Shown here in pieces: positions 1 to 23,953 of a DNA stretch of 64,000 bases; within the stretch, counting starts at the first letter, position 1, and every line of letters begins with the position of its first letter. The DNA is from a virus. Its lineage: Duplodnaviria; Heunggongvirae; Uroviricota; Caudoviricetes. Location of the stretch: the IMG/VR virus record IMGVR_UViG_3300035498_001143; one strand, written 5' to 3'. The notes beneath the pieces were generated by a model. That model worked only from the letters and a program-made list of their open reading frames with translations. It was not told where the DNA came from and ran no database searches. The position numbers were made by a program, and so were the translations under genes.

Positions 1-2063
1 ATGACTTAATAAACAATGAATGTGATTTCTTTGAAATTACATTAGAGTTTGTTATGGATAATAATGATTATAAAATTATTAGGAAGAAAACAAGAGGTGG
101 AAAACACGAATTAGAGTTTTTCATCAATAATATATCCCAGACAGAAAAGATAAACGATACGCAGGATAAAATAAATAAGGTTATTAAAATGAACTACGAT
201 ACATTCTTAGATACAGTTTGTATTGGGCAAGGTAAATCTGATAACTTTATGAAGAAAAAGCCTAATGAGAGAAAAGATGTGTTTGTTGAAATTCTTAATT
301 TAAATCAATTTGAGGTATTAGAAAAACATACTAAGGATTTAAAGAAAGAATTATCCACTCAGCTCATTGAAAAAGAAAACACTTTATATTTATTGCAAGA
401 TAGTGTTAATAAAGAAGATGAATATAATTCTTTAATTACTCAATATTCTTCCTATGCTAAAGATTTTAATAACAAAATATTAGATAAGGAAATAGAGTTA
501 AAGAAAGTAAGGGAAGAAAAAGCTCAGTATGATTTAATTATTAAGCAGAACGAACAGCTTTTAAATCATAAAAAGAATATTTATTCTTCTATCAATAACA
601 CAAAGAATAAAATATCTGCTACTGAAAATAAAGTTAATTCTTTTAATGCTAAGATAAATAATTTAAAAGTTAAGTTTGTTAATAATAAGAAGAATATTGT
701 TAGTTGCCAAGAGAGTATAAAAGAATATGAGGAAGAATTAAATGGTATTGTTATTGAAGAAATAAATGATGATAAGACTTCAATCAATAATCAGATAGAA
801 GAAATATTACAGCAGAAGAATGATTTAGAAACAGAAAAGACACAGAACTTAACTAATATTAAATCATTTAAGAACCAAATTGCTGAATATAAAATTCAGT
901 ATAATAATTTGAATGAATATAATAAGGGTGAATGTGAATTTTGTGGTAATGAAATCACTGCCGAGCATAAAGAAAAACATTTAAATGATTTAACTAAGAA
1001 GATAAATACTCTTACAGAGAATATTGAAGAAAATAATAAGCTTTGTGAAGAAATTGTTGATAAGGTTAATGAATTAAAGACCAAATATGTTTCTTGTAAA
1101 AACGCTTTAAATGATATTGATGAAAAAGTAAAAGAAATAAATAAATTAAAAATACGACAGGAGAAATTAAATTCTGCTATTTCTAATTATACAGATAAGA
1201 TAAGTTCTTTAAAAGAAGAAATGGCTGAGATTAAAGAACAAAAGACTGAGTATGACAATGAAATTATTTCTTTAAATAAAGAAATAGAAGATTTAAAGAA
1301 CGAGTTATCTGACTTCAATAAGCAATATGAAGAATGTAGTGTTGATGAAATTGAAACTAAAACATTTAATGATGGTGAGTTAGAGTTTGATATTTCTACT
1401 TTAAGAGATAAATTAGTAAAAGCTGAATCTAATAAGGCTGTTTATGAAGAAAAGATAGTAGAAATAAATAATAACAAACAGAAGTTAAATGAAGTGGTAA
1501 AAGAGATTGAAGATATAACTACACAAATATCTGACTATGAATCTTTAATAGAAGCTTTTGGTAAGAAAGGTATACAAGCTAATATTATTGCTAATGTATT
1601 ACCTGATGTAGAGAATGAAATAAATGAGGTATTAGATGCTTTATTTAATAATTCCACCACAATAGAATTTATCACTCAGAAAGACGATAAGAAAACAAAG
1701 GCTAAGAAAGAAATATCTTTAGAAACATTGGATATAGTTATCCACGATAAGGATAGAGATAGAAATTATGAAACTTATAGTGGTGGAGAAAAGTTTAGAA
1801 TAGACTTTGCCTGCCATATAGGTATGGCTAAATTCTTAGCTAAGAGAGCTAAAGCTAATATAGAGTTCTTTATGATTGACGAGGGATTGGGTAGTCAAGA
1901 TGATGAAGGTAGAGAAAACTTTATATTAACTGTAAATAAGTTAAGTGATATGTTTAAACAAATATTTATAATTACTCATATAGATGAAGTAAAAGATGCT
2001 TTTGATAAGAAGATAATTATAAATAAGGATAATATTAAAGGTTCAAAAATTGAGGTTCTTTAA
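1..2063 (+). CDS. sbcC: SbcC/Rad50-like recombination ATPase, C-terminal ~670 aa (5' end cut by window edge)
   Basis: The frame is open back to nt 1 with no stop. It shows a Q-loop-like IGQG, a long coiled coil with a CxxC zinc hook (CEFCG), the ABC signature YSGGEKFRIDFA and a D-loop FFMIDEG near the C-terminus. No Walker A is present, so the N-terminus lies upstream. Confidence 0.8.
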   Translation, partial: DLINNECDFFEITLEFVMDNNDYKIIRKKTRGGKHELEFFINNISQTEKINDTQDKINKVIKMNYDTFLDTVCIGQGKSDNFMKKKPNERKDVFVEILNLNQFEVLEKHTKDLKKELSTQLIEKENTLYLLQDSVNKEDEYNSLITQYSSYAKDFNNKILDKEIELKKVREEKAQYDLIIKQNEQLLNHKKNIYSSINNTKNKISATENKVNSFNAKINNLKVKFVNNKKNIVSCQESIKEYEEELNGIVIEEINDDKTSINNQIEEILQQKNDLETEKTQNLTNIKSFKNQIAEYKIQYNNLNEYNKGECEFCGNEITAEHKEKHLNDLTKKINTLTENIEENNKLCEEIVDKVNELKTKYVSCKNALNDIDEKVKEINKLKIRQEKLNSAISNYTDKISSLKEEMAEIKEQKTEYDNEIISLNKEIEDLKNELSDFNKQYEECSVDEIETKTFNDGELEFDISTLRDKLVKAESNKAVYEEKIVEINNNKQKLNEVVKEIEDITTQISDYESLIEAFGKKGIQANIIANVLPDVENEINEVLDALFNNSTTIEFITQKDDKKTKAKKEISLETLDIVIHDKDRDRNYETYSGGEKFRIDFACHIGMAKFLAKRAKANIEFFMIDEGLGSQDDEGRENFILTVNKLSDMFKQIFIITHIDEVKDAFDKKIIINKDNIKGSKIEVL

Positions 2064-2143
2064 TGTATTTTTAAAATAATCTTTAAATAAAAATATTTTT
2101 AAAAGAAAATCACTAATTTTTTTAATATTTTCGTTAAAAACAC

Positions 2144-2172
2144 TTGACAAAAACACTATATTATAGTACAAT
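2144..2172 (+). promoter_or_regulatory. sigma70-type promoter (TTGACA-17-TACAAT) upstream of the HU gene
   Basis: Exact -35 hexamer at 2144-2149 and -10 at 2167-2172. Confidence 0.55.
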
Positions 2173-2262
2173 GAGTGTGTCGAAAGAATTGTTACTAATT
2201 CGGCAGATACACAAAAATAATTCTTATGTTAAAAAAATAAAATTAGAAAGGAAACTAAAAAA

Positions 2263-2550
2263 ATGACAAAGAAAGAATTTGCACAGAAATTAGCAGAAAG
2301 ACTTGATACAACAAATGCAAATGCTTCAAGAAGTATTGATGCAGTATTTGATATTCTTGAAGAAACATTGGAAGCAAATGACACATATAGTCATCAGGGC
2401 TTTGGTACATTTAAGACTAAGAAGCAGGATGCAGCAACAAGAAGAAATCCTGCAACAGGTGAAACTATGGAGTGTCCTGCAAAGTATGTTCCTAAGTTCT
2501 CATACTCACCAAAGGTTAAGACAGCAGTAGCTAATATTACTGTTGAGTAA
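2263..2550 (+). CDS. hup: HU/IHF-family histone-like DNA-binding protein
   Basis: 95 aa with the GFGTF...RRNPATGE...PKF arm motifs typical of HU. A strong RBS (aaaggaaac) precedes it. Confidence 0.85.
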   Translation: MTKKEFAQKLAERLDTTNANASRSIDAVFDILEETLEANDTYSHQGFGTFKTKKQDAATRRNPATGETMECPAKYVPKFSYSPKVKTAVANITVE

Positions 2551-2638
2551 TTAATAAAAGCCATACAAAAACCTTCTTTTAGACCTTGTAGGTGATTAAT
2601 TTCATCTGCAAGGTTTTTGTAAATAATAAGAGGAAAAT

Positions 2639-3391
2639 ATGAAAGTTTTAAAAAGATTATTACCAATTATATTTATTTTAATATTATGGGGTATAGGTAG
2701 TTTATTTACAAAACCTTTATTCTTACCATCGCCAATAAAAGTATTTAATACATTTATCTCTTTATTACAAAATGGTATGTTAGTAAAAGGATTTGTATAT
2801 TCATTTATGAGAATATCTATTGCAACATTATTATCAATGTCTATAAGTGTTATTTTATCTATTTTAATTATGAATAGTAAGGTAATTGATGATTTAATGA
2901 CACCTATAACGAATTTTTTAAGATATTTACCTATTACAGCATTTTATCCGTTGTTGATGATGTGGTGTGGAATAAACGAAAGAATGAAAATAAGTTTTTT
3001 ATTCTTAGCAACTTTTGTTTATTTTTTACCTACATTAGTTTTAACAATGAAAGATATAGACCAAAATCTAATAGATACGGCATTAACAATAGGAGTTAAG
3101 AAATATCAATTAGTATACAGAATAATCCTACCTTATTGCTTACCTGTTATTTGTAAAACCTATTTAATGATGTATGGAATTGGTTGGACTTATATAGTAA
3201 TTGCCGAAACGGTAAATGCTAAATTCGGGTTGGGGCATTTAATAAATGTTGCAACATCAAGAGGTAGAACAGACCAAGTATTTGTTGTATTGATAATAAT
3301 TATTTTATTTAGTTATTTGTTTGATACATTATGTTCTTATATAATTGAAAGAATATTTAAGTGGAAATATACAGGAAAGGAAGTAAAATAA
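2639..3391 (+). CDS. ABC transporter permease, NitT/TauT (SsuC/TauC-like) family
   Basis: Six predicted TM segments and an EAA-like loop (ALTIGVKKYQLVYRIILPYCLP) typical of binding-protein-dependent permeases. Confidence 0.8.
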   Translation: MKVLKRLLPIIFILILWGIGSLFTKPLFLPSPIKVFNTFISLLQNGMLVKGFVYSFMRISIATLLSMSISVILSILIMNSKVIDDLMTPITNFLRYLPITAFYPLLMMWCGINERMKISFLFLATFVYFLPTLVLTMKDIDQNLIDTALTIGVKKYQLVYRIILPYCLPVICKTYLMMYGIGWTYIVIAETVNAKFGLGHLINVATSRGRTDQVFVVLIIIILFSYLFDTLCSYIIERIFKWKYTGKEVK

Positions 3392-4188
3392 TGGATAAAG
3401 ATAAAAAGAATTTTTTAAAGTTTGCAATTATTATAGGAGCTATCTTTTTAATTTTAATTATATTATTGTTTTGTTCAATAAGAGTAGTTCCTGGCGGTTC
3501 AACAGGTGTAGTAGTTAGATTAGGTGCAATTCAAGAAAATACTTTAAATGAGGGTTCAAGTTTTGTTGCACCATTTATTACAAAGGTAGTTAAAATAAAT
3601 AATAAAGTAGTAAGAACGGATGTAACAGGTACTTCTGCTTCTAAGGACTTACAAACAGTAACATTTACTGTATCTGTTAATTATCAAGTAATACCTGAAA
3701 AGTCTGCATACATATATAGAACATTAGGCGAAGATTATGAAAATGTAGCTTTAAGACCTGCCGTACAAGAATGTGTTAAATCTGTTGTATCTAAATATAC
3801 AGCAGAAGAATGTATTACTAATAGACAAGAATTAAGTACTCAAATGAAAGAGGAATTAAATCATAAAGTTTATGAGTATGGTATGGTTATTGCAGATATA
3901 AATGTAATAAATTTCGATTTTTCAGAAGAATTTAATGCTGCTATTGAACAAAAGACTACTGCACAGCAAAATGCTTTAAAGGCTGAACAAGATTTAGCAA
4001 GAATTAAGATAGAGGGCGAACAAAAGATTGCAGAAGCAGAAGCAGAGGCAAAGGCTAATGAAATTAAGAACGCTCAAATTACTGATGATACTTTAAAAAT
4101 GAAATTTATTGAAAAATGGAATGGTGAACTTCCTGCTGTTGTTGGTTCAGAAGATAATTTATTTAATGTAGATGATTTCATAAAATGA
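3391..4188 (+). CDS. SPFH/band-7 (prohibitin/flotillin-like) membrane protein
   Basis: N-terminal TM segment followed by RVVPGGSTGVVVRLG...PFITKVVKINNKV, the SPFH fold signature. The C-terminal half is an A/E-rich coiled coil. The start is moved from the ORF-track position to ATG 3391, which overlaps the upstream TAA and has an RBS. Confidence 0.7.
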   Translation: MDKDKKNFLKFAIIIGAIFLILIILLFCSIRVVPGGSTGVVVRLGAIQENTLNEGSSFVAPFITKVVKINNKVVRTDVTGTSASKDLQTVTFTVSVNYQVIPEKSAYIYRTLGEDYENVALRPAVQECVKSVVSKYTAEECITNRQELSTQMKEELNHKVYEYGMVIADINVINFDFSEEFNAAIEQKTTAQQNALKAEQDLARIKIEGEQKIAEAEAEAKANEIKNAQITDDTLKMKFIEKWNGELPAVVGSEDNLFNVDDFIK

Positions 4189-5829: not shown

Positions 5830-6426
5830 ATGAATATTAAAAATTTACATTTTCAATATGAAAATAATATTGTTTTTGATAAATTAAATTTAAAATTTGA
5901 GGATAATCAAATAAATTGTATTGTTGGTAAATCAGGTATAGGTAAATCTACATTATTGAAATGTATTGCAGGTTTGTTAAAATATAAAGGAGATATTTTA
6001 ATAAATGATGAAAAAGTAAATATTGATGATGTTTTTATGATGCACCAAAGTTATACTAACTTTCCTTGGCTTACTTGTTTAGATAATGTTTTATTCCCTA
6101 TAAAGATAAAAAGAAAAATAAATAGTGAGGATAAACAACAAGCTATTGATTTACTAAATAAAGTGGGACTTAAAAATAATTTAAATGATTATCCTAATCA
6201 ATTATCAGGTGGTATGCAACAAAGACTTGCATTAGCAAGAACATTACTAATACAACCAAAGATATTACTTATGGATGAACCGTTATCTGCATTGGATAAT
6301 AATACAAGAACTCAAATGCAAAACCTAATATTAGACTTACATAATTCTATACATAACACAATTATTCTTGTTACGCATAGTGAACATGAAGCTAAATTAT
6401 TAGGTGATAAAATAATTAAATTATAA
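5830..6426 (+). CDS. ABC transporter ATP-binding protein (SsuB/TauB-like)
   Basis: Walker A GKSGIGKST, signature LSGGMQQR, Walker B LLLMDEP, H-loop VTHS. Confidence 0.85.
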   Translation: MNIKNLHFQYENNIVFDKLNLKFEDNQINCIVGKSGIGKSTLLKCIAGLLKYKGDILINDEKVNIDDVFMMHQSYTNFPWLTCLDNVLFPIKIKRKINSEDKQQAIDLLNKVGLKNNLNDYPNQLSGGMQQRLALARTLLIQPKILLMDEPLSALDNNTRTQMQNLILDLHNSIHNTIILVTHSEHEAKLLGDKIIKL

Positions 6427-6446: not shown

Positions 6447-6998
6447 ATGGCAAAAAGCTTATTTGAAAAATTAGGATTGGTAGAAAGTGAACCAATACAA
6501 CCTGTTTCTTATGATATTGAAGATATATCGTTTGACGATACATCAGAAGAAAAAATAGAAACAACAGATTTTAACGAGGAATTAATTTATCCTGATGAAA
6601 TTTATAAAAATGCTAAGTATGAAAACGAAAATAGCATTTATAAAATTCAGGAATTTAAAGAAGCATTACCTAAAACAATGTCAACAGAAATGATGAAACA
6701 ATCAGTTTTGGGTATATTAAAGCCTACTAATTTAGATGTTAATGATTTAATTGAAGATGGTAATGCAAGAATAAATATTTTAAATCAAAACATAGCAGCT
6801 CTTAATGATGAAAAAAATGATTATGTAAGTATTCTTTCAAAAGAAATTGCTGAATTACAGGCTAAGATAGAAAAGAATAAAGTTGATATAAACAATAAAG
6901 AAGTTTTTTCCGCAAAGCAATTAAGTGTAATTGAAGATGAAATTAATAAGATAAACAATATAATTAATTTCATTAGTAGTCCTACGGAAGGAGAATAA
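6447..6998 (+). CDS. hypothetical coiled-coil protein
   Basis: ORF with RBS; heptad-rich C-terminus. Confidence 0.4.
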   Translation: MAKSLFEKLGLVESEPIQPVSYDIEDISFDDTSEEKIETTDFNEELIYPDEIYKNAKYENENSIYKIQEFKEALPKTMSTEMMKQSVLGILKPTNLDVNDLIEDGNARINILNQNIAALNDEKNDYVSILSKEIAELQAKIEKNKVDINNKEVFSAKQLSVIEDEINKINNIINFISSPTEGE

Positions 6999-7882: not shown

Positions 7883-8149
7883 ATGTTGAGATTAACAACA
7901 AAAGGGAAAATTGCCATTTTAATTTTGCTTTTAATTATTATTGGCGTAGCAGGATTTTTTGGTGTAAAAAAAGGTTGGATAAAGACAGGTAATATTAAAG
8001 AAAAGATTGAAAATATTACTTCTTCTGTTGGTTCAACAAGTAAGGCAAGTAAGAGTAAAACAACGCAAGAAAAGACCAATGTAATCAATTTATCTTATGA
8101 TGAATGGGTTGAATCTACGTCAGTCAGCCCCCTCTTTGTAGTAATACAG
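7883..8149 (+). CDS. exon 1 of a membrane-anchored SsuA/NMT1-like substrate-binding protein fused to an OmpA C-terminal domain
   Basis: N-terminal TM anchor, then a Ser/Thr linker, then ...NLSYDEW...PLFVVIQ. The frame stops 2 codons later inside the inserted element. Confidence 0.6.
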
Positions 8150-9944
8150 AGTTGAACAAGTTTTTTACGTGCTGAAAAATCTTAAAGTCAATCAAACTAC
8201 AACATAATTAGAAATAATAAGTGTGAATGTTACGAAAGTAGAAAAAATTGATTGAATGGAATATGGTGAAATAAAAGCTAATATATAAACATTTATATAT
8301 TAGTCCTAAGTTCTTTTAATAATAGGTAATCAGCAATTAAATATCTAAATAAAATCAATTATTTTATATGATATGGATTCAACGACTATTCTTGAAAAAG
8401 ACAATGGAAATTTGTCAATAGAAGTAGGACCTAAGTAGGTAGGTGAAATCCCTTTAAATCGAAATGGAAAGATAGTATTTTTACTATGATGATATAGTCT
8501 GTTCTTATATGAGAGTATAAGATTTATAATAAAACATTATAAAAACTAAATATATATTTAACTTTTTCACCTTTTTTCTATATAAGAAATATAGGAGGTG
8601 AAAAATAATGATATATATGGGATTTAAAACCAAAATATATCCCACAAAAGAACAAATTGAATATTTTAATAAATGTTTTGGAATAGATAGATTTGTTTTT
8701 AATTGGTATCTTTACAATGATAAAAAGTATTATGCTCAAGGAAATCGACAATCTTATTATGATTTAAGAGAAAAATTAATTCAATTAAAGCATACTCCAA
8801 AATTTAATTGGTTAATGACAGCAAATGATAGAATTTTGAATTGTTCGATGAAAAATGCTAAAATGGGACTTGACAAGTTCTTTAAAAAGCTTAATAGATA
8901 TCCAAATTATAAAACAAAGAAATCGAAAAATAAAAGTTTCTCTTGTGAAAGATGTTTAATAGATTCAAATTCTACTAAATTGAAAAGATTTAAGCATTTG
9001 TTTAATGGATTTCATTTTTATATTGCAGGAGAACAAGAAGAAGGAAAACGTAGTGCTAATGGATATTTTATAAAAACAGCGGAAGATATTACTTTTTTAA
9101 AAAATAAAACTATTAAAAAAATTACAATATCTTACGATGGAATAGATTATTATGTAAGTTTTTCTTATGAAAATAGCATTATTGACTATAATGGTCATAT
9201 TGTTGATGTTGTAGGTATAGATTTAGGGCTGAAAAAATATTCAGTTCAATCTGATAACCGAATAACAGTATTTCCCAAACAAAGGGTTTTTAAGTTAGAG
9301 AAAAGAATTAAAAGATTAAGAAGTATATTAAATAAAAAGGAAAAGGGAAGTAATAACTATAATAAAGTGAAAACCAAACTTAGAAAAAGTTATAGAAAGA
9401 TTACGAATATAGTTTTGGACTTTTTACATAAATATACTACTTATATATGTAAAACCTATAAAACAATTAAAATAGAAGATTTGACGATTAAAAAAATGCT
9501 AAAAAATCACAATCTTGCAAAAGCAATTCATCGTAGTTGTTGGAGAAAATTTAGAAATATGCTTCAATATAAATCGTTGTTATATAATAATAATTTGATT
9601 ATAGTTGATAGCTATTTTCCATCAAGTAAAACGTGTTATTATTGTAGAAATAAAAAGCAAGATTTAAAATTATCGGATAGAATTTACCATTGTAATGTAT
9701 GTGGTTATGAAAACGATAGAGATTTAAACGCAGCATATAATTTAAGAGAGTGGATATAATAAATAACTTATACTAAGAAAAGTTATTATTACCTTGGTTA
9801 AAGGAATTAAGAATTTGTTTTAATTATAAAGAGTAATTATTAAATTAATTATTACTTATATATTAGTTAAATGAATTTAGTTAATTTTTTATTTTGTTTT
9901 TATATGAAAATTATTAAATAACGAATAATAATTAACAAGACAGG
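8150..9944 (+). mobile_element. IStron: group I ribozyme module (5') fused to an IS605/IS1341-family TnpB element (3'); boundaries +/- 3 nt
   Basis: Group I core elements Q (AATCAGCAA, 8328-8336), R (TTCAACGACTAT) and S (GATATAGTCTG) lie in the 450-nt ORF-less 5' part. The tnpB ORF follows, and subterminal RE-like hairpins (agtaattatt...aattattact) sit near the 3' end, which ends in G. The host reading frame resumes in phase at 9945. Confidence 0.65.
8608..9759 (+). CDS. tnpB: TnpB (IS605 OrfB / IS1341-type RuvC-like RNA-guided nuclease)
   Basis: 383 aa. N-terminal MxxGFKxKxYPTKEQ typical of OrfB. C-terminal C4 zinc finger CYYC...CNVCG and a terminal RuvC-III-like DRDLNAAYNL. Confidence 0.85.
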   Translation: MIYMGFKTKIYPTKEQIEYFNKCFGIDRFVFNWYLYNDKKYYAQGNRQSYYDLREKLIQLKHTPKFNWLMTANDRILNCSMKNAKMGLDKFFKKLNRYPNYKTKKSKNKSFSCERCLIDSNSTKLKRFKHLFNGFHFYIAGEQEEGKRSANGYFIKTAEDITFLKNKTIKKITISYDGIDYYVSFSYENSIIDYNGHIVDVVGIDLGLKKYSVQSDNRITVFPKQRVFKLEKRIKRLRSILNKKEKGSNNYNKVKTKLRKSYRKITNIVLDFLHKYTTYICKTYKTIKIEDLTIKKMLKNHNLAKAIHRSCWRKFRNMLQYKSLLYNNNLIIVDSYFPSSKTCYYCRNKKQDLKLSDRIYHCNVCGYENDRDLNAAYNLREWI

Positions 9945-11270
9945 GGCTGGCGTGAAATTGTTGAAGCTCAAACAAGAGGTTATTATGATGAAGAAGGTAT
10001 TACTGTTAATATCAGTGTAATGAATGATGCTACTGATAGTTCTAATGCTTTAATTAGTGGAGATTTAGATGCAGCAGGTTATACTGTTAATAGATATGCT
10101 TTTTTAATGGATAAATTCAAGCAGAACAATGTTGATGTTGCAATGCCTATTATTATTAATAGAAGTAGTGGTGGTGATGGCATTATTGCTGATGCTGATA
10201 TCAATTCTATTAAAGATTTAGTAGGTAAAAAAGTTGGTGTTCCAAGATTTAGTGAAGCACAAACTTTAGTTGAATGGTTTGTTTCTAAGTCTGATTTAAC
10301 AGACGATGAAAAGAGTAAAATAGAATATGTATATTTTGATACACCTGACGAAGCTGCAAGTGCTTATTTCGCAGGTGAAATAAATGCTGCTGCTACTTGG
10401 CAACCATATTTAGCACAAGCACAAGAAAGTACAGATAGTCATATTCTTATTGATACAAGCAATGCTACAAGCCTTGTATTGGACGGTATTGTGTTTAGAC
10501 AGGATTATCTTGATGTAAATGCTGATACAGTTGAGAAGTTCATTAGAGCTACTTTAAAGGCTTATGATGATTACAACGATACTGATTATACAGCATTAAG
10601 AAATAATATGTCTATGTTTTCAAGTATGAGTGATGAAGAAATTGCTGATACATTACCTGATGCAACATTGTTAAATTGGAATGAAAATATGGAAGTATTA
10701 GCCGATGAAGCTGTTATTCTTTATAGAGATATGTCTAATATCTGGAATGATTTAGGAGAAACAGCTTATCCTGATATGGCAGAACAAGCATTTACTACTA
10801 CATATATGAGTGCTTGTGAAGATTTAAAAACTGCTGATATAAAAACTGTTTCAGTTACAGCAGAACAAAAGGAAGAAGTTAAGAATAACTCAGATAATTA
10901 TGATGCTTTAATAAATGCACAAGCAACAATTAACTTTAAGCCTAATTCAGCAGTATTTGCAGACCAAGAAGAAGCTGCTAAAGCATTAGACGAATTTGTT
11001 GATACGGCAAAAATGCTTGATGGTGCAATTATTATGATTGAGGGTAACTCAGCTAATACAAATGGTGCTACTGAAAATAGTGAGTTTGATATTAAGCTTA
11101 CCGAACAAAGAGCTAAGACTGTTGCTAATTATTTCATCAGTAAAGGTATTGATAATTCAAGATTTATTACAGTTGGTAATGGTATTGGTAATCAGATAGC
11201 TGATAACTCTACAGAAGAAGGTAGAGCTAAGAACAGAAGAACTGATATTAAATTTATTATAGCTGAATAA
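9945..11270 (+). CDS. exon 2 of the SBP-OmpA fusion: SsuA/NMT1-like periplasmic binding domain plus OmpA/MotB peptidoglycan-binding domain
   Basis: GWREIVEAQTRGYYDEEGITVNI matches the conserved N-terminal strand of the NMT1/SsuA fold. The C-terminal 110 aa carry the OmpA_C pattern NFKPNSAVF...LTEQRAKTV..Y...GI...R....G.G......EGRAKNRR. The reading frame is open from 9936. Confidence 0.65.
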   Translation, partial: GWREIVEAQTRGYYDEEGITVNISVMNDATDSSNALISGDLDAAGYTVNRYAFLMDKFKQNNVDVAMPIIINRSSGGDGIIADADINSIKDLVGKKVGVPRFSEAQTLVEWFVSKSDLTDDEKSKIEYVYFDTPDEAASAYFAGEINAAATWQPYLAQAQESTDSHILIDTSNATSLVLDGIVFRQDYLDVNADTVEKFIRATLKAYDDYNDTDYTALRNNMSMFSSMSDEEIADTLPDATLLNWNENMEVLADEAVILYRDMSNIWNDLGETAYPDMAEQAFTTTYMSACEDLKTADIKTVSVTAEQKEEVKNNSDNYDALINAQATINFKPNSAVFADQEEAAKALDEFVDTAKMLDGAIIMIEGNSANTNGATENSEFDIKLTEQRAKTVANYFISKGIDNSRFITVGNGIGNQIADNSTEEGRAKNRRTDIKFIIAE

Positions 11271-19440: not shown

Positions 19441-20397
19441 TTGATTTTAGAAAATCAAACAGTTGTTATTCAATGGACGGGTCGTAATAGAAAAAAATAT
19501 GAAGAATTAGGCTATGTTTTTACTAAATTTGGAAACCCGTTAGAAATTAAAGTAGAACATTTACATAAAGGTTCTCACGAAGAAGTTTGGTATGAATGTG
19601 ACAATTGTCATAAAAAAGATAAAAGAGAATATAGAAAACTTTTTAAACAAGATATACATTATTGTAAAAAATGTTGTACTATTAGACGAGAAGAAACTTG
19701 TATGAAATTATACGGAGTAAAAAACACATTTCAGAGTGAAGAAAAAAAAGAAAAAATAAAACAAACTTGTATAAAAAAATATGGAGTAGACAGTCCTTTA
19801 AAAAACAAAGAAATACACGACAAAGTAGAAGCAACTTGTATGAAAAAATATGGCGTAAGAAATACTTTTCAAGTAAAAGAGTTTCAAGAAAAAAGTAGAC
19901 AAACAATACTTGAACGATATGGAGAAGATTATTATAAAGAAAAAGCACTTACAATGATAAGAACTTTAAATAATAAAAATAGCTCAACAAGAACATCTAA
20001 TAATCAAGCAAATATTTGTGAATGGACGAATGGTACATTAAACTATAAAATAAGTAGGTATTCTTTGGATATTAGAATAAATGATAAATTATATATTGAA
20101 TACGATGGTTCAGGACATACATTACCTGTCATTTTAAAACAAGTTTCTAAAAAAGTTTTTAAGAAAAAAGAATTATATAGAAATAAATATATGGAAAATT
20201 TAGGATATAAACTTATAAGGGTTATTAATCGTCAAGATATTGATTTAGATAAGGATGAATTTTTAAAGTTATATAATTTCTGCACCGATTATCTTAAAAA
20301 TACAGATTATAAGTGGATAAAGATATATTATGATAAACGACTTGTTATAAGTAATATTTTTAAAAAAACTTTTGATGAGGTGATAAATAATGAGTAA
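19441..20397 (+). CDS. free-standing homing-endonuclease-like protein: zinc ribbon, three ~30-aa KKYGV-N-FQ repeats, C-terminal Vsr/DUF559-like PD-(D/E)XK nuclease domain
   Basis: N-terminal CDNCH...CKKCC. Three repeats of the pattern TC[IM]KKYGV[DRK][NS][PT][FL][QK]. C-terminal LYIEYDGSGH...YMENLGYKLIRV resembles the DUF559/Vsr endonuclease core. The TTG start overlaps the gyrB start. Confidence 0.45.
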   Translation: MILENQTVVIQWTGRNRKKYEELGYVFTKFGNPLEIKVEHLHKGSHEEVWYECDNCHKKDKREYRKLFKQDIHYCKKCCTIRREETCMKLYGVKNTFQSEEKKEKIKQTCIKKYGVDSPLKNKEIHDKVEATCMKKYGVRNTFQVKEFQEKSRQTILERYGEDYYKEKALTMIRTLNNKNSSTRTSNNQANICEWTNGTLNYKISRYSLDIRINDKLYIEYDGSGHTLPVILKQVSKKVFKKKELYRNKYMENLGYKLIRVINRQDIDLDKDEFLKLYNFCTDYLKNTDYKWIKIYYDKRLVISNIFKKTFDEVINNE

Positions 20398-21706
20398 TAA
20401 TTATGATGTTGGGCAAATATCTTCCCTCGAAGGATTAACTTCAATCCGTCTTAAACCATCTATGTATATAGGTTCTACGTCACAAGAAGGTGTAAATCAA
20501 TTAGTTTATGAAGTATGGGATAATGCTCTTGATGAATATGTTGCAGGTTATGGTAATGAAGTAAACGTAGTTATTGATAAAGAAAATTATATATCTATTG
20601 AAGACCACGGTAGAGGTATTCCTGTTGGACCTCATCCAACTTGGAAAAATCCTGATGGTACTCCACAAGATACATTGACAGGTGTCCTGACTCGCATCCA
20701 TGCAGGAAGCAAATTCACCCACGATGGAAATTCAGGGTATTTTTCAGGAATTTCTGGTACGTTCGGGGTTGGAACAAAGTGTAATGTTGCTTTATCTGAT
20801 GATTTTATAGTTAGAGTGAAAAGAAATGGCAACATATATCAACAAACATTTAGTAAAGGTAAACCTACTTCAGAAGTTGAAATTGTTGGGAATGTTGAAA
20901 AAAATGATACAGGTACAACGATTAAATTTCATCCTGACCCTACGATATTTAAAACAACAATTCAGCCAAATGATAGAAAATTACAAAACAGACTTGATGA
21001 AATAACTTCTTTAAATACAGAGTTGAAAATTAATTATAAAAATGAATTGGCTAACGTAGATACAACATTTTATTATCCTAATGGTATAGCTGATTATATA
21101 AATAAAAAGTTATTAAAAGATAAAAAACTTTTATTCGAAGAACCAATTTATTATGCAGGTGAATATACTGATAATGATGAAATTATTAAAGTTGAATTTT
21201 CTTTTATGTATGTTGATGATGTGGAAAGTAATGAAATTATTAAAACATTTGCTAATAATGTATCAACAAAAGAACACGGTACACATTTAGTAGGTTTTAA
21301 AGAGGGTTATAAAGAAGCTATTAATCAATATGCAATAAGTAAAAAATGGATAACCGAACCAATTGAGATTAAATATTTAATGGATAACATTTGTTTAATT
21401 GTATCTGTTAAGTTAAGAGAATGTGAGCTTGACGGACAAACAAAAAATAAATTAGGTAATTTAATAGCTAAAGATGGTGTTGCTAATGTTGTTAAAGAAT
21501 ACTTTAATAAGTTAAGTAAAGAACAACAAGTAGTAATACAAACAATAGTTGAAAGAGCTAATAAAGTAAAAGAAGCAGAAGAAGCTGCAAGGAGAGCAAG
21601 AATAAATACAAGGACTGCTAATAAAATAAAGAAGATAGCATTACCTGGCAAACTTGCTGATTGTAGTAGTAATAAAGGATATAGTGAATTATTCTTAGTT
21701 GAAGGA
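20390..21706 (+). CDS. gyrB: DNA gyrase/topo II subunit B, exon 1 (GHKL ATPase, transducer, start of toprim up to ELFLVEG)
   Basis: GHKL ATPase motifs (EVWDNALDE, DHGRGIP, GTFGVGTK) then LADCSSNKGYSELFLVEG; the frame stops 2 codons later. Confidence 0.85.
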
Positions 21707-22091
21707 GTAGCCTAAAGGCAGAAACTCCCTATTAAGTAGTAATATTTAATAGAAAATTTCTTTAATTGCTGGAAGTTCCTAAAATTAATTATACTATTAA
21801 AATGTTTAATAGTTGCGAAAGTAGAAAAAAATAATTAAACGATATATGGTGATAGTAAACCTAAGTATTATAAGAAATAATAATTTCTAAAAATGGATAA
21901 TCAGCAACAAAATATATAAATAAAAAATATATATGTTCAACGACTATGCTTTAAAAGCAGTAGGATAAAAGTTTATCCGAAATGGGAAAATACTTAATGT
22001 TTAAGTATATGATATAGTCTATGCACTAATGAAAGTTAGTGAAAAACTAAATGTTTTTATTATAGTTTAACAAACTATGGTTAATGTAATT
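21707..22091 (+). ncRNA. ORF-less group I intron (subgroup IA-like) in gyrB
   Basis: P AATTGCTGGAAG (21763-21774) and Q AATCAGCAAC (21900-21909) form a 7-bp P4. R GTTCAACGACTATGC and S ATGATATAGTCTATGC form P7. A CTCC internal guide 18-21 nt into the intron pairs with exon GGAG. The intron ends in G. Excision restores EG|DSAGG in frame. Confidence 0.7.
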
Positions 22092-22160
22092 AGATTCTGC
22101 TGGTGGTTCTGCAAAGAACGCAAGATATAGAGAATTTCAAGCTATATTGCCATTAAGAGG
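22092..22160 (+). CDS. gyrB: gyrB exon 2 (24-aa micro-exon with toprim DSAGGSAK...LPLRGK)
   Basis: Encodes [23 protein letters not shown](K), the universally conserved toprim DxD/acidic segment of GyrB. Confidence 0.75.
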
Positions 22161-22471
22161 TAAAGGATTTGCCTCTACATTTCTAACTGTTTAATATAAC
22201 AGGGTATGCTTAAAAACGATTTAAATGCGTTTTGAAGCTTGCTAACGAGGAAAGCTTAACATTATACATATAAGTCAAAATATGTTCAGGTGAAGTCAAT
22301 CTCGTGCGAAATATAGCGATTTAATAATTGCTGTTCGTGTATCGACTATCCTAAGTTAGATTAGGAGTACAGGTTTTATAAAACTTGGAAATGGAATGAC
22401 CGTTTTAAAAAGTTTGACAAACTTATAGGTTAAGAAATAGTCAGTGCTATTAGAAATAATAGATTATAATG
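22161..22471 (+). ncRNA. second intervening sequence in gyrB, probably a self-splicing intron of uncertain class
   Basis: 311 nt with stops in all frames. The upstream exon ends in U and the element ends in G, as expected for group I. GACTA (22349-22353) and TAGTC (22436-22440) could form P7, but no clear P/Q. Excision joins RGK|ILNTEKA in frame. Confidence 0.45.
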
Positions 22472-23026
22472 AAAATCCTTAATACTGAAAAAGCCAGTTT
22501 TGAAAAAGCATTAAATTCAGATGTTATTAAATCATTTATTGCTGCAATAGGAACAGGTATAGGTAAGAATTTTAATATAGATAAATGTAGATATGATAAA
22601 ATAATTATGATGACTGATGCGGACGTTGACGGTTATCATATCTCAAACTTAATTTTAACTTTTATATATAATTATATGAGACCTTTAATTGAAAATGGTT
22701 ATATATATTTAACAGTACCACCTCTTTATAAGGTTATTACCAAAAAGGAAAGTCTTTATATAAGAGATGATATTGAATTAAAAGAATATAAAAAGAAACA
22801 CCCAAGAGAAAATTTAGAAGTACAAAGATTTAAGGGATTAGGAGAAATGGATTACGAAGAACTCAAAGTCACTACAATGGACCCAGCAACAAGAGTGTTA
22901 GAAAAGATTGCTATTGATGATGTTGAAGAAATGGTAGAAGCATTTAATGTATGTATGGGAAGTAATGTAGAGATAAGAAGAAAATTCATTGAAGAAAACG
23001 CTCAGTCAGTAAATTTAGATAATTAA
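22472..23026 (+). CDS. gyrB: gyrB exon 3 (rest of toprim and C-terminal tail)
   Basis: ILNTEKA...IGTGIGKNFN...IIMMTDADVDGYHI...PPLYKV are canonical GyrB toprim motifs. Confidence 0.85.
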   Translation, partial: KILNTEKASFEKALNSDVIKSFIAAIGTGIGKNFNIDKCRYDKIIMMTDADVDGYHISNLILTFIYNYMRPLIENGYIYLTVPPLYKVITKKESLYIRDDIELKEYKKKHPRENLEVQRFKGLGEMDYEELKVTTMDPATRVLEKIAIDDVEEMVEAFNVCMGSNVEIRRKFIEENAQSVNLDN

Positions 23027-23788: not shown

Positions 23789-23953
23789 ATGGATAAAATA
23801 ATAGAGATAATTGTTTCAATGGTTTACTTATTTTCATTATTAATAGTGGCTATTTTTTATGGTATATTAGAATTTATAATACTTATCGTCTTACTTTTTT
23901 GTTTTGTAATTTATTTAATATATAATTATATAAAAAAGAAAGGTGGGAAATAA
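23789..23953 (+). CDS. small two-TM membrane protein (54 aa)
   Basis: ATG after RBS aaggtga; hydrophobic; its stop abuts the RNase H start. Confidence 0.3.
   Translation: MDKIIEIIVSMVYLFSLLIVAIFYGILEFIILIVLLFCFVIYLIYNYIKKKGGK

Follow-up and report, generated by a model that had tools for sequence, protein, structure and literature searches.

Group I introns of the IA2 type reside in phage genes such as T4 td, nrdB and nrdD (sunY), Twort orf142 and the SPO1 DNA polymerase gene. Here we describe the gyrB gene of a Caudoviricetes phage (IMG/VR record IMGVR_UViG_3300035498_001143), which appears to be split by two introns of this kind. The window is the whole stretch of DNA that was analysed, 64,000 nucleotides (nt; 64 kb) with 25.8% GC, and coordinates are positions in it unless another contig is named.

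IA2 introns account for more than half of viral group I introns (PMC11835236). An IA2 ribozyme is also found in group B IStrons, joined to an IS607-type element; there the 5' exon closes with G and the intron opens with U, as experimentally confirmed for BcISt1 (Tourasse et al. 2014, PMC4227781), and the insertion sites published so far finish with GG, or with AG in the case of CsISt1 (PMC4227781). In Jug phages, short group I introns devoid of open reading frames (ORFs), inteins and free-standing endonucleases fragment essential genes, with a mean of 18.5 introns per genome; of 76 predicted introns, 37 had their splicing confirmed by metatranscriptome reads (PMC12880540). The crAss-like phages, too, are reported to have genes broken up by several introns and inteins (PMC7886860, as cited in PMC12880540). 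The topoisomerase genes of T4 are split by mobA and include a stretch of 50 nt that ribosomes hop over (PMC2988022).

We propose that gyrB in the window consists of three exons separated by two inserts that would need removal from the mRNA, and that each of these inserts is an IA2-type group I intron of the kind known from phages. From the sequence evidence below we put the probability of this reading at roughly 0.9.

Results

gyrB is predicted to lie in three exons

20390..21707, + strand: gyrB exon 1, HATPase, transducer and start of the toprim domain up to ...ELFLVEG, plus the first base G of an Asp codon (ORF list, Pfam, ParE colinearity)
21708..22093, + strand: predicted intron 1, 386 nt, ORF-less, group I, IA2-like (RF00028, covariance model R1, fold, ortholog in contig L001)
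22094..22161, + strand: gyrB micro-exon, 68 nt, (D) and 22 residues, DSAGG...PLRG (translation, gap-free ParE alignment)
22162..22471, + strand: predicted intron 2, 310 nt, ORF-less, group I, IA2-like, of an nrdD/topoisomerase phage subfamily (RF00028, covariance models R1 and R2, minimum free energy fold, L001 ortholog)
22472..23026, + strand: gyrB exon 3, KILNTEKA..., DADVDG at ~22616-22633, KGLGEM, GyrB C-terminal domain, stop at 23024-23026 (ORF list, domains, ParE alignment)

The first ORF (+ strand, from 20390) covers about two thirds of a GyrB/ParE-type protein, from the N-terminus to ...SELFLVEG, where GGA occupies 21704-21706 and is followed by GTA GCC TAA. The frame taken up at 22093 gives 24 residues and then a stop, and from 22472 it reads KILNTEKASF... 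to the stop of exon 3. We set the junctions by requiring an intron-terminal G, at 21707/21708, 22093/22094, 22161/22162 and 22471/22472. The positions 22092 and 22160 of the initial annotation are each one base low; the inserts measure 386 and 310 nt, not 385 and 311, and the micro-exon 22 2/3 codons. For insert 2 a single junction gives a terminal G (...AGAGGU/AAAGGA...UAAUG/AAAAUCC, slashes marking junctions). For insert 1, among all in-frame pairings of a 5' position with a 3' position that ends in G, the invariant EGDSAGG survives only with 21707(G)/22093(G); hence the last exon base is G, the first intron base is U, and the Asp codon is split G/AT. The terminal (omega) G is G22093 in intron 1 and G22471 in intron 2. 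Both had been read correctly before, as had the U preceding insert 2 and the G preceding insert 1, G21707 opposite C21725.

Joining 20390-21707, 22094-22161 and 22472-23026 yields a 1941-nt ORF for a 646-residue protein with the Pfam domains HATPase_c, DNA_gyraseB, Toprim and DNA_gyraseB_C (GyrB_C). Its best solved chain, Streptococcus pneumoniae ParE (4juo_C, E 4.5e-134), is matched end to end with both junctions gap-free, and a segment of 38 residues around the micro-exon aligns to it without a gap. The closest annotated phage protein, gp252 of Bacillus phage G, is 49% identical over residues 1-644 in one uninterrupted piece. A gyrB in three exons, as the initial annotation had it, is thus colinear with both intron-less proteins; what fails is its placement of the insertions in the DxD segment. 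The micro-exon holds DSAGG and PLRG instead. The catalytic Glu belongs to exon 1 (EGDSAGG, two codons upstream of intron 1), and DxD (DADVDG) comes ~48 codons into exon 3; the catalytic residues are thus not flanked by the two introns.

The 23-codon micro-exon lacks a start codon, so making the toprim domain would require both splicing events. Gene callers break gyrB into fragments of 441 and 185 residues and lose the micro-exon. Compared with 5.8 billion proteins, the exon-3 ORF has a top match of just 63% identity, and many matches are C-terminal fragments of 181-191 residues. Three such fragments were looked up (L205-L207): there is no intron-sized gap, the upstream gene abuts or overlaps in two, and no upstream gyrB is called in the third. 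Nucleotide searches of the gyrB region and its inserts against GenBank phages found no match.

Both inserts carry a group I core of the IA2 type

Predicted elements of intron 1 (P7.1, P7.2 and P9.x are named after PMC4227781):
21704-21707 (exon GGAG) with 21725-21728 (CUCC): P1
21717-21723: P10 strand, GGCAGAA
21729-21752: P2
21756-21762 (AUUUC/UUUCUU) with 21979-21989 (GAAAU or GGGAAA): P3
21766-21772 with 21901-21907 (UUGCUGG with UCAGCAA): P4
21773-21900: P5 extension, 128 nt, receptor-like CCUAAA...AAUGG
21912-21933: P6
21942-21947 (GACUAU) with 22014-22019 (AUAGUC): P7
21948-21958: P7.1
21963-21978: P7.2
21990-22008: P8
22025-22040: P9, GAAA loop
22043-22079: P9.1 and P9.2

Predicted elements of intron 2:
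22156-22161 (exon AGAGGU) with 22171-22176 (GCCUCU): P1, U.G at the splice site
22163-22170: P10 strand, AAGGAUUU
22178-22183 (CAUUUC) with 22388-22398 (GAAAUG or GGAAUG): P3
22187-22202: extra hairpin a
22203-22243: extra hairpin b
22245-22250 (ACGAGG) with 22300-22305 (UCUCGU): P4, J4/5 AAA, J5/4 CAA
22254-22296: P5
22306-22338: P6/P6a
22343-22349 (CGACUAU) with 22437-22444 (AUAGUC(A)G): P7
22350-22365: P7.1
22370-22387: P7.2
22410-22424: P8
22447-22462: P9, GAAA loop

The P, Q, R and S strings named for insert 1 in the initial annotation are present as written. J3/4-P4 AAUUGCGGGAAA, P4' AAUCCGCAGCC, R and S fit the RF00028 consensus, and a P4-P6 domain is in place. Insert 2 had been said to lack a P/Q pair; ACGAGG and UCUCGU in fact form it and, with AAA as J4/5, complete a P4-P6 domain recognized by R2 (E 7e-9). 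This P4 was missed by eye because two extra 5' hairpins hide it. The suspected P7 of insert 2, CGACUAU with AUAGUC(A)G, is supported by R1 (E 1.1e-11). A near-receptor, CCUAAA...AAUGG (21777-21783 and 21894-21898), accompanies the GAAA loop L9 in intron 1.

Guide pairing is found in both inserts. In intron 1 the guide GGCAGAAACUCC pairs with GGAG of exon 1 (4 base pairs, bp) and UUCUGCU of exon 2 (7 bp), making an adjacent P1 and P10 of 11 bp. In intron 2, AAGGAUUU-GCCUCU pairs with AGAGGU (6 bp) and AAAUCCUU of exon 3 (8 bp), for 14 bp that are reached by 0.4% of shuffles (p ~0.004), with the U.G at the 5' splice site formed by U22161 and G22171. Both inserts fold more stably than shuffled controls. 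For insert 1 (z -3.63) the centroid recovers P2, P4, P6, P7, P7.1, P7.2, P8 and P9-P9.2, and for insert 2 (z -4.33) the unconstrained minimum free energy fold recovers hairpins a and b, P4, P5, P6/6a, P7, P7.1, P7.2 and P8.

Two covariance models place the inserts in families. R1 spans P7-P7.1-P7.2-P8-P9 and was built from 42 IMG/VR 3' halves of other phages (alignment A1), this phage being excluded; R2, built from 20 introns (alignment A3), models the 5' half as it occurs in the nrdD/topoisomerase subfamily. In A1, P7.1, P7.2, P8 and P9 covary strongly, with a score of 0.629 vs 0.197 in shuffles (0 of 500), and 92.8% of cells are paired, vs 69% when shuffled and 36-45% with partners slid. P7 is invariant in all 42 members, and P7 with its R and S strands is present in both introns. 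Both also have the P7.1 and P7.2 hairpins characteristic of IA2, which in the family are 96-97% paired with both-side changes at every pair. In A3 the hairpins, P4 and P5 covary (0.516 vs 0.179, 0 of 500 shuffles), P4 exchanging G-C, A-U and U-A pairs; P3 and P4 covary across family members.

Against the 64-kb window R1 gives exactly three matches, the third in an IStron discussed below:

21933-22051: insert 1, 87.7 bits, E 8e-19
22335-22473: insert 2, 57.7 bits, E 1.1e-11
8375-8531: IStron, 53.2 bits, E 1.3e-10

R2 gives one match, at 22155-22312 (42.1 bits, E 7.2e-9), starting 7 nt upstream of the proposed 5' splice site. The motif GTTCAACGACTA...GATATAGTC is found in >120 IMG/VR stretches, and so is the longer CGACTAT-(hairpin)-AGTA-(hairpin)-GAAATGG. 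Parts outside the search motifs of R1 and R2 fit too, namely P8, J8/7, P9, hairpins a and b, and P5.

The group I core that the initial annotation had called textbook in insert 1 is upheld by R1, not by the gathering score of RF00028. Only the 3' part of insert 1 aligned to that model (30.3 bits, local E 1.1e-5), and insert 2 scored 18.9 bits (E 0.028); RF00028, proposed as a check on both, therefore gives partial matches below its threshold of 50 bits. In a whole-window Rfam scan at E<=1 the RF00028 matches are lost through E-value scaling. RF00028 has no P7.1 or P7.2, and it gives no match at E<0.1 in contig L039 despite two introns of the same type there. We observed that it misses or under-scores phage IA2 introns (L039; L001 at 5880-5973 and 6216-6397), from which it follows that gathering-threshold scans under-count such introns in phage genomes. 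R1 and R2, or models made for single subtypes, do pick them up, and with such models broken topoisomerase, nrdD and other genes of huge phages could be pieced together.

Other insert types fit poorly. No group II family is among the Rfam matches up to E 10 on 21650-22520, and the inserts are 310-386 nt long and ORF-less: no ORF of >=30 residues exists in them on the + strand, the longest having 22. In-frame stops come after 2 codons in insert 1 and 10 codons in insert 2, which is not the arrangement of an intein.

Several points weigh against the assignment. Intron 1 has no U.G at its 5' splice site, since G21707 faces a C, and its U(+1) faces A, so that the shifted U.G of group B IStrons is not evident either; its 5' splice-site chemistry is unexplained by the standard model. 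The 11 bp of its P1 and P10 are reached by 2.6% of shuffles (p ~0.03-0.04), a modest figure. P3 has two alternative registers in both introns. Both inserts stay below the RF00028 gathering threshold (30.3 and 18.9 of 50 bits), at which a scan of the window finds nothing. The R1 and R2 scores are partly circular, as their training sets were gathered with motifs from these introns, and covariation for the two introns themselves is thin, with one distinct ortholog sequence (L001-L004 being identical). Actual splicing, ribozyme self-sufficiency and the mode of mobility are what we infer, next to the directly observed exon colinearity, core sequence and structure, covariance-model family membership and conservation in a relative.

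Intron 2 groups with introns of nrdD and topoisomerase genes

The 3' half of insert 2, GUAUCGACUAU-CCUAA..UUAGG-AGUA-CAGGUUU..AAACUUG-GAAAUGG ... AAGAAAUAGUCAGUGC-UAUUAGAAAUAAUAG, is characteristic of a group of phage introns, most of which have an endonuclease ORF in P6 and are located in nrdD or topoisomerase genes. We defined the 5' half of this subfamily from its ORF-less members and a further scan. It runs in the order guide, P3 5' strand, hairpin a, GGGU, hairpin b, GCUAACGNGG (J3/4 and P4), P5, AAUCNCGUGGGAA (J5/4, P4' and P6); there is no P2, and two conserved hairpins stand between the P3 5' strand and P4. P3 covaries across the subfamily (CACACC with GGUGUG, CAUUGC with GCAGUG, UAAUC with GGUUA, UAUCCC with GGGAUA, and others), and P5 often bears the receptor motif CCUAAG...UAUGG. 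In many members (L218-L421, alignment A3) we noted the classic 11-nt GAAA-tetraloop receptor (CCUAAG...UAUGG) in P5 together with a GAAA loop on P9.

An alternative P3 and P8 for intron 2 (AAGCUU with AAGUUU; UUUUGAAGC with GUUUUAAAA; P8 as AACU with GGUU) was dropped on family comparison. The same comparison fixed P3' as GAAAUGG+N and P8 as AAGUUU with AAACUU; the L001 change U269C would break the alternative P8.

Both introns are conserved in a relative

Four IMG/VR contigs of 54-379 kb (L001-L004), identical over the 9.6 kb fetched, carry a gyrB whose exon 1 is 89% identical in amino acids to that of the window. This gene (4001-7760 in L001, the same in L002-L004) has five inserts, four group I introns and one mini-intein:

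Intron A: in the HAGGKF motif, RF00028 52.6 bits, above gathering
Introns B and C: at EG/D and PLRG/K, orthologs of inserts 1 and 2
Insert D: 6550-6978, in-frame mini-intein of 143 residues at MM/CDADVDG, Thr to Cys at +1, Pfam Intein_splicing E 5e-13
Intron E: in KGLGEM, R1 E 0.013, R2 E 3.6e-5

The window is without A, D and E, and its exons run on cleanly at those places. Judged from these sequences, the gyrB inserts are mobile elements with presence/absence polymorphism. The arrangement, once described as striking, is less singular than it seemed: L001 has four introns and an intein, and unrelated phage topoisomerase genes have introns in the same motifs.

Insert 1 is 95.4% identical to B and insert 2 97.7% identical to C. 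The eight substitutions in intron 2 break 0 of the proposed helices. The differences across both introns comprise loop indels, a G-C to G.U change in P7.2, G.U to G-C in P6a, A.G to A-U extending hairpin b, and the swap of one P5-extension hairpin for another. In the P10 strand of L001 intron 2, two substitutions shift GG and keep the pairing to exon CC. In exons 2 and 3 every codon change seen relative to L001 is synonymous and none is non-synonymous, with 2 in the micro-exon and 5 in the compared parts of exon 3, hence 7 over the 143 toprim codons: the exons are under purifying selection.

Two further differences from L001 were noted. Around the site of its intron A, ~100 nt of exon (20686-20788 in the window, 4297-4728 in L001) do not align at the nucleotide level between flanks of 91-95% identity, which looks like a co-conversion or target-site-immunity tract. 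Upstream of an RNase H gene, L001 has ~600 nt extra (8679-9297, against 23921-23943 of the window), which may be a mobile insert.

Invariant topoisomerase motifs are recurrent targets

The two introns sit in invariant motifs (EG/DSAGG and PLRG/K), as expected of elements homing into conserved sites. Loci fetched for other reasons (L199, L237, L241, L247, L275, L297 and L316) show the same preference. The T4-like topoisomerase of L316 (- strand, ~217-3563), 30-46% identical to the window protein, has inserts at residues ~108, 439/440 and 584/585, the motifs of L001 A, B and E; its EG/D intron is a compact relative of insert 1 of ~215 nt, one nt upstream, with a canonical junction GGU/...G/GAU. 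Subfamily-b introns with endonuclease ORFs occupy the DxD motif (residues ~512-518) in L241, L247, L297 and L237, introns lie at KGL/GEM in L275 and L316, and the gyrB of L199 (2980-3500) has an intein after EGNSAGG. One and the same motif is thus held by an intron in one phage and by an intein in another. With HAGGKF, EGDSAGG, PLRGK, DxD and KGLGEM all on the list, self-splicing elements can occupy almost all the invariant motifs that a type IIA topoisomerase B subunit possesses.

For PLRG/K no second example was found among these loci. A scan of metagenome contigs with the exon 2 and 3 protein turned up no further orthologs of the two introns; it was swamped by intron-less cellular gyrB and parE, as the MMTDADVD pattern is universal, and besides these intron-less homologs it yielded one case of an intein (L199).

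A possible agent of mobility adjoins the gene:

19441..20397, + strand: homing-endonuclease-like gene, 318 residues, last 8 nt overlapping the gyrB start (PHROG 12131 'homing endonuclease', E 7e-38)

Its product matches Pfam DUF7487 and, weakly, treble-clef and DUF559 families, and the gene is 91% identical in nucleotides in L001. It might drive the mobility of the gyrB region.

The G before intron 1 and an IStron in the same window

The least ordinary feature of intron 1 is its junction, GGAG/UAGCC: the exon closes with G and the intron opens with U, as in group B IStrons. The window itself contains such an element:

8109-9945: IStron, intron after TGGG (8108) and starting UUGAAUC; TnpB ORF at 8608-9759; exons at ~7883-8108 and ~9946-11270

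Its TnpB has 383 residues with the Pfam domains OrfB_IS605, Cas12f1-like TNB and HTH_OrfB_IS605. The element probably ends at 9945 (...ACAGGG/GCUGG): removal up to that point restores the ORF of a protein with NMT1 and OmpA domains, whose gene the IStron splits. By comparison with PMC4227781 it looks like the group B IStrons described there.

Over 270 nt the identity between intron 1 and the intron of this IStron is 66%, and both have the P5-extension motif CGAAAGUAGAAAAAA...AUAUGGUGA. Since they are related and have this motif in common, the G/U junction of intron 1 is most simply read as a lineage trait. The motif occurs in 34 stretches of IMG/VR phage contigs; a scan of genome contigs for it found nothing. 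A P5-extension module of the form ...GUUAC GAAAGUAGAAAAAA (stem) AUAUGGUGAAAUAAAAG..CCUAAG.. was noticed as conserved in these 34 stretches (L424-L457), many of them from contigs of 70-380 kb. The junction GGAG/UA...CUCC of intron 1 also recurs in L425. L001 intron A and the L275 intron were considered as further non-U 5' splice sites and rejected, as repeated junction bases (GGU/...G/GGU and U/UAG...G/UAG) make both canonical. The junction of L001 intron E is ambiguous: the exons read KGIGEM if the exon closes with G, and KGLIGEM if it closes with U.

Compatibly with our preferred reading, a group B IStron could be the ancestor or a relative of intron 1, an ORF-less element that would then have reached GGAG by transposition, not homing. 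The G/U junction, the 66% identity to the intron of a TnpB-bearing element, the common P5-extension motif and the exon end GGAG, set beside published sites ending in GG or AG, all speak for such an origin. Yet intron 1 has neither the insertion sequence (IS) part nor the long AU-rich terminal inverted-repeat stem, and it ends in UUAG, not CGG. The motif is also present in the 34 IMG/VR stretches, of which the one checked, L426, has a conventional endonuclease ORF (this endonuclease has no detectable similarity to the 19441-20397 product). The compact relative one nt away in an unrelated topoisomerase (EG/D of L316), with its canonical U.G, fits ordinary homing-type site conservation, and a homing-endonuclease-like gene adjoins gyrB. 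We consider this origin possible, with the balance tilted towards doubt.

A bolder extension would make intron 1 and its ortholog a phage ribozyme class that splices at a Watson-Crick junction, G-C on the exon and U-A on the intron side, with no U.G at the splice site or beside it. Such ribozymes would be common to, or descended from, IStrons with TnpB that have settled in conserved motifs of huge-phage enzymes. This seems to us unlikely; if true, it would mean a 5' splice-site recognition other than the canonical wobble-receptor mechanism. The G-C site of intron 1 offers a compact, ORF-less natural substrate for studying IStron-type splice-site choice in the absence of the U.G wobble.

Discussion

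We now propose a route from the interrupted gene to GyrB. gyrB would be transcribed as one pre-mRNA in which each intron folds into a P3-P9 core. The 5' exon end and the internal guide sequence would form P1, where free guanosine attacks the 5' splice site; P10 would then align the 3' exon, the terminal G would enter the G-binding site of P7, and the exons would be ligated. The outcome would be a continuous mRNA for the 646-residue GyrB.

The inserts might instead be group I introns of which one or both, especially intron 1, no longer self-splice; they would then need a protein cofactor, or gyrB would be a decaying pseudogene in this phage. Such a state would suit the lack of a U.G wobble in intron 1, the sub-threshold Rfam scores of both introns and the absence of an intron-encoded maturase or endonuclease. 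It is hard to reconcile with the strong purifying selection on the exons (all 7 changes in the toprim exons are synonymous, as are both of those in the micro-exon), with introns conserved as well as the exons and changed only in structure-preserving ways, or with core helices that are all intact in both; moreover, a last exon G is compatible with splicing in BcISt1 (PMC4227781). We judge loss of self-splicing very unlikely.

That the gaps stay in the RNA, to be bypassed in translation as in T4 gene 60, to separate assembling polypeptides, or to be removed as inteins, is extremely unlikely: the hop and split of the T4 topoisomerase genes are precedents and exon 1 does end in GGA with a stop soon after, but the gaps are 386 and 310 nt, not ~50, no matching GGA landing codon precedes GAU at 22093, the micro-exon has just 23 residues and neither a start codon nor a ribosome-binding site, in-frame stops within 3-11 codons of both inserts exclude inteins, and both inserts hold complete group I cores.

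If two spliced group I introns are the right reading of gyrB, the known picture of phage introns would be unchanged by them; they appear to be an ordinary kind of phage selfish element, well supported in silico, and their one unusual detail is the G in place of the usual U before intron 1. The literature searched, which leaves out most subscription journals, yielded no account of a phage gyrB or topoisomerase gene with a group I intron.

Compared with the phage IA2 introns, the two gyrB introns have the same R/S core (GUUCAACGACUA...GAUAUAGUC), P7.1 and P7.2 between P7 and P3', and a GAAA loop L9, with P9.1 and P9.2 in intron 1. They likewise interrupt an invariant motif of an essential DNA-metabolism gene, and several introns share one gene as in Twort. 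They differ in the host gene, gyrB, in that both are without an endonuclease ORF, in the G-C instead of U.G of intron 1, and in the missing P2 and two extra hairpins of intron 2.

With the group B IStrons BcISt1 and CbISt (PMC4227781), intron 1 shares the IA2 ribozyme, the last exon G and the first intron U, and a related IStron resides in the same window. Unlike them, it has no IS part or TnpB ORF and no AU-rich terminal stem, ends in UUAG, and has a U(+1) that faces A.

The large AT-rich genome (contigs of the relative reach 379 kb, and the window has 25.8% GC) and the many elements in essential genes resemble what is seen in Jug and crAss-like phages. Topoisomerase IV of Jug phages, on the other hand, is listed as a single-copy core gene, not as fragmented (PMC12880540), and the nearest annotated GyrB is that of Bacillus phage G (49%). 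Lastly, the inteins of GyrB and other topoisomerases and the split of T4 genes 39 and 60 target the same toprim motifs (MM/(T or C)DADVDG in L001, EGNSAGG in L199). Those act at the level of protein or translation, whereas the gyrB inserts described here combine in-frame stops with the cores of RNA ribozymes.

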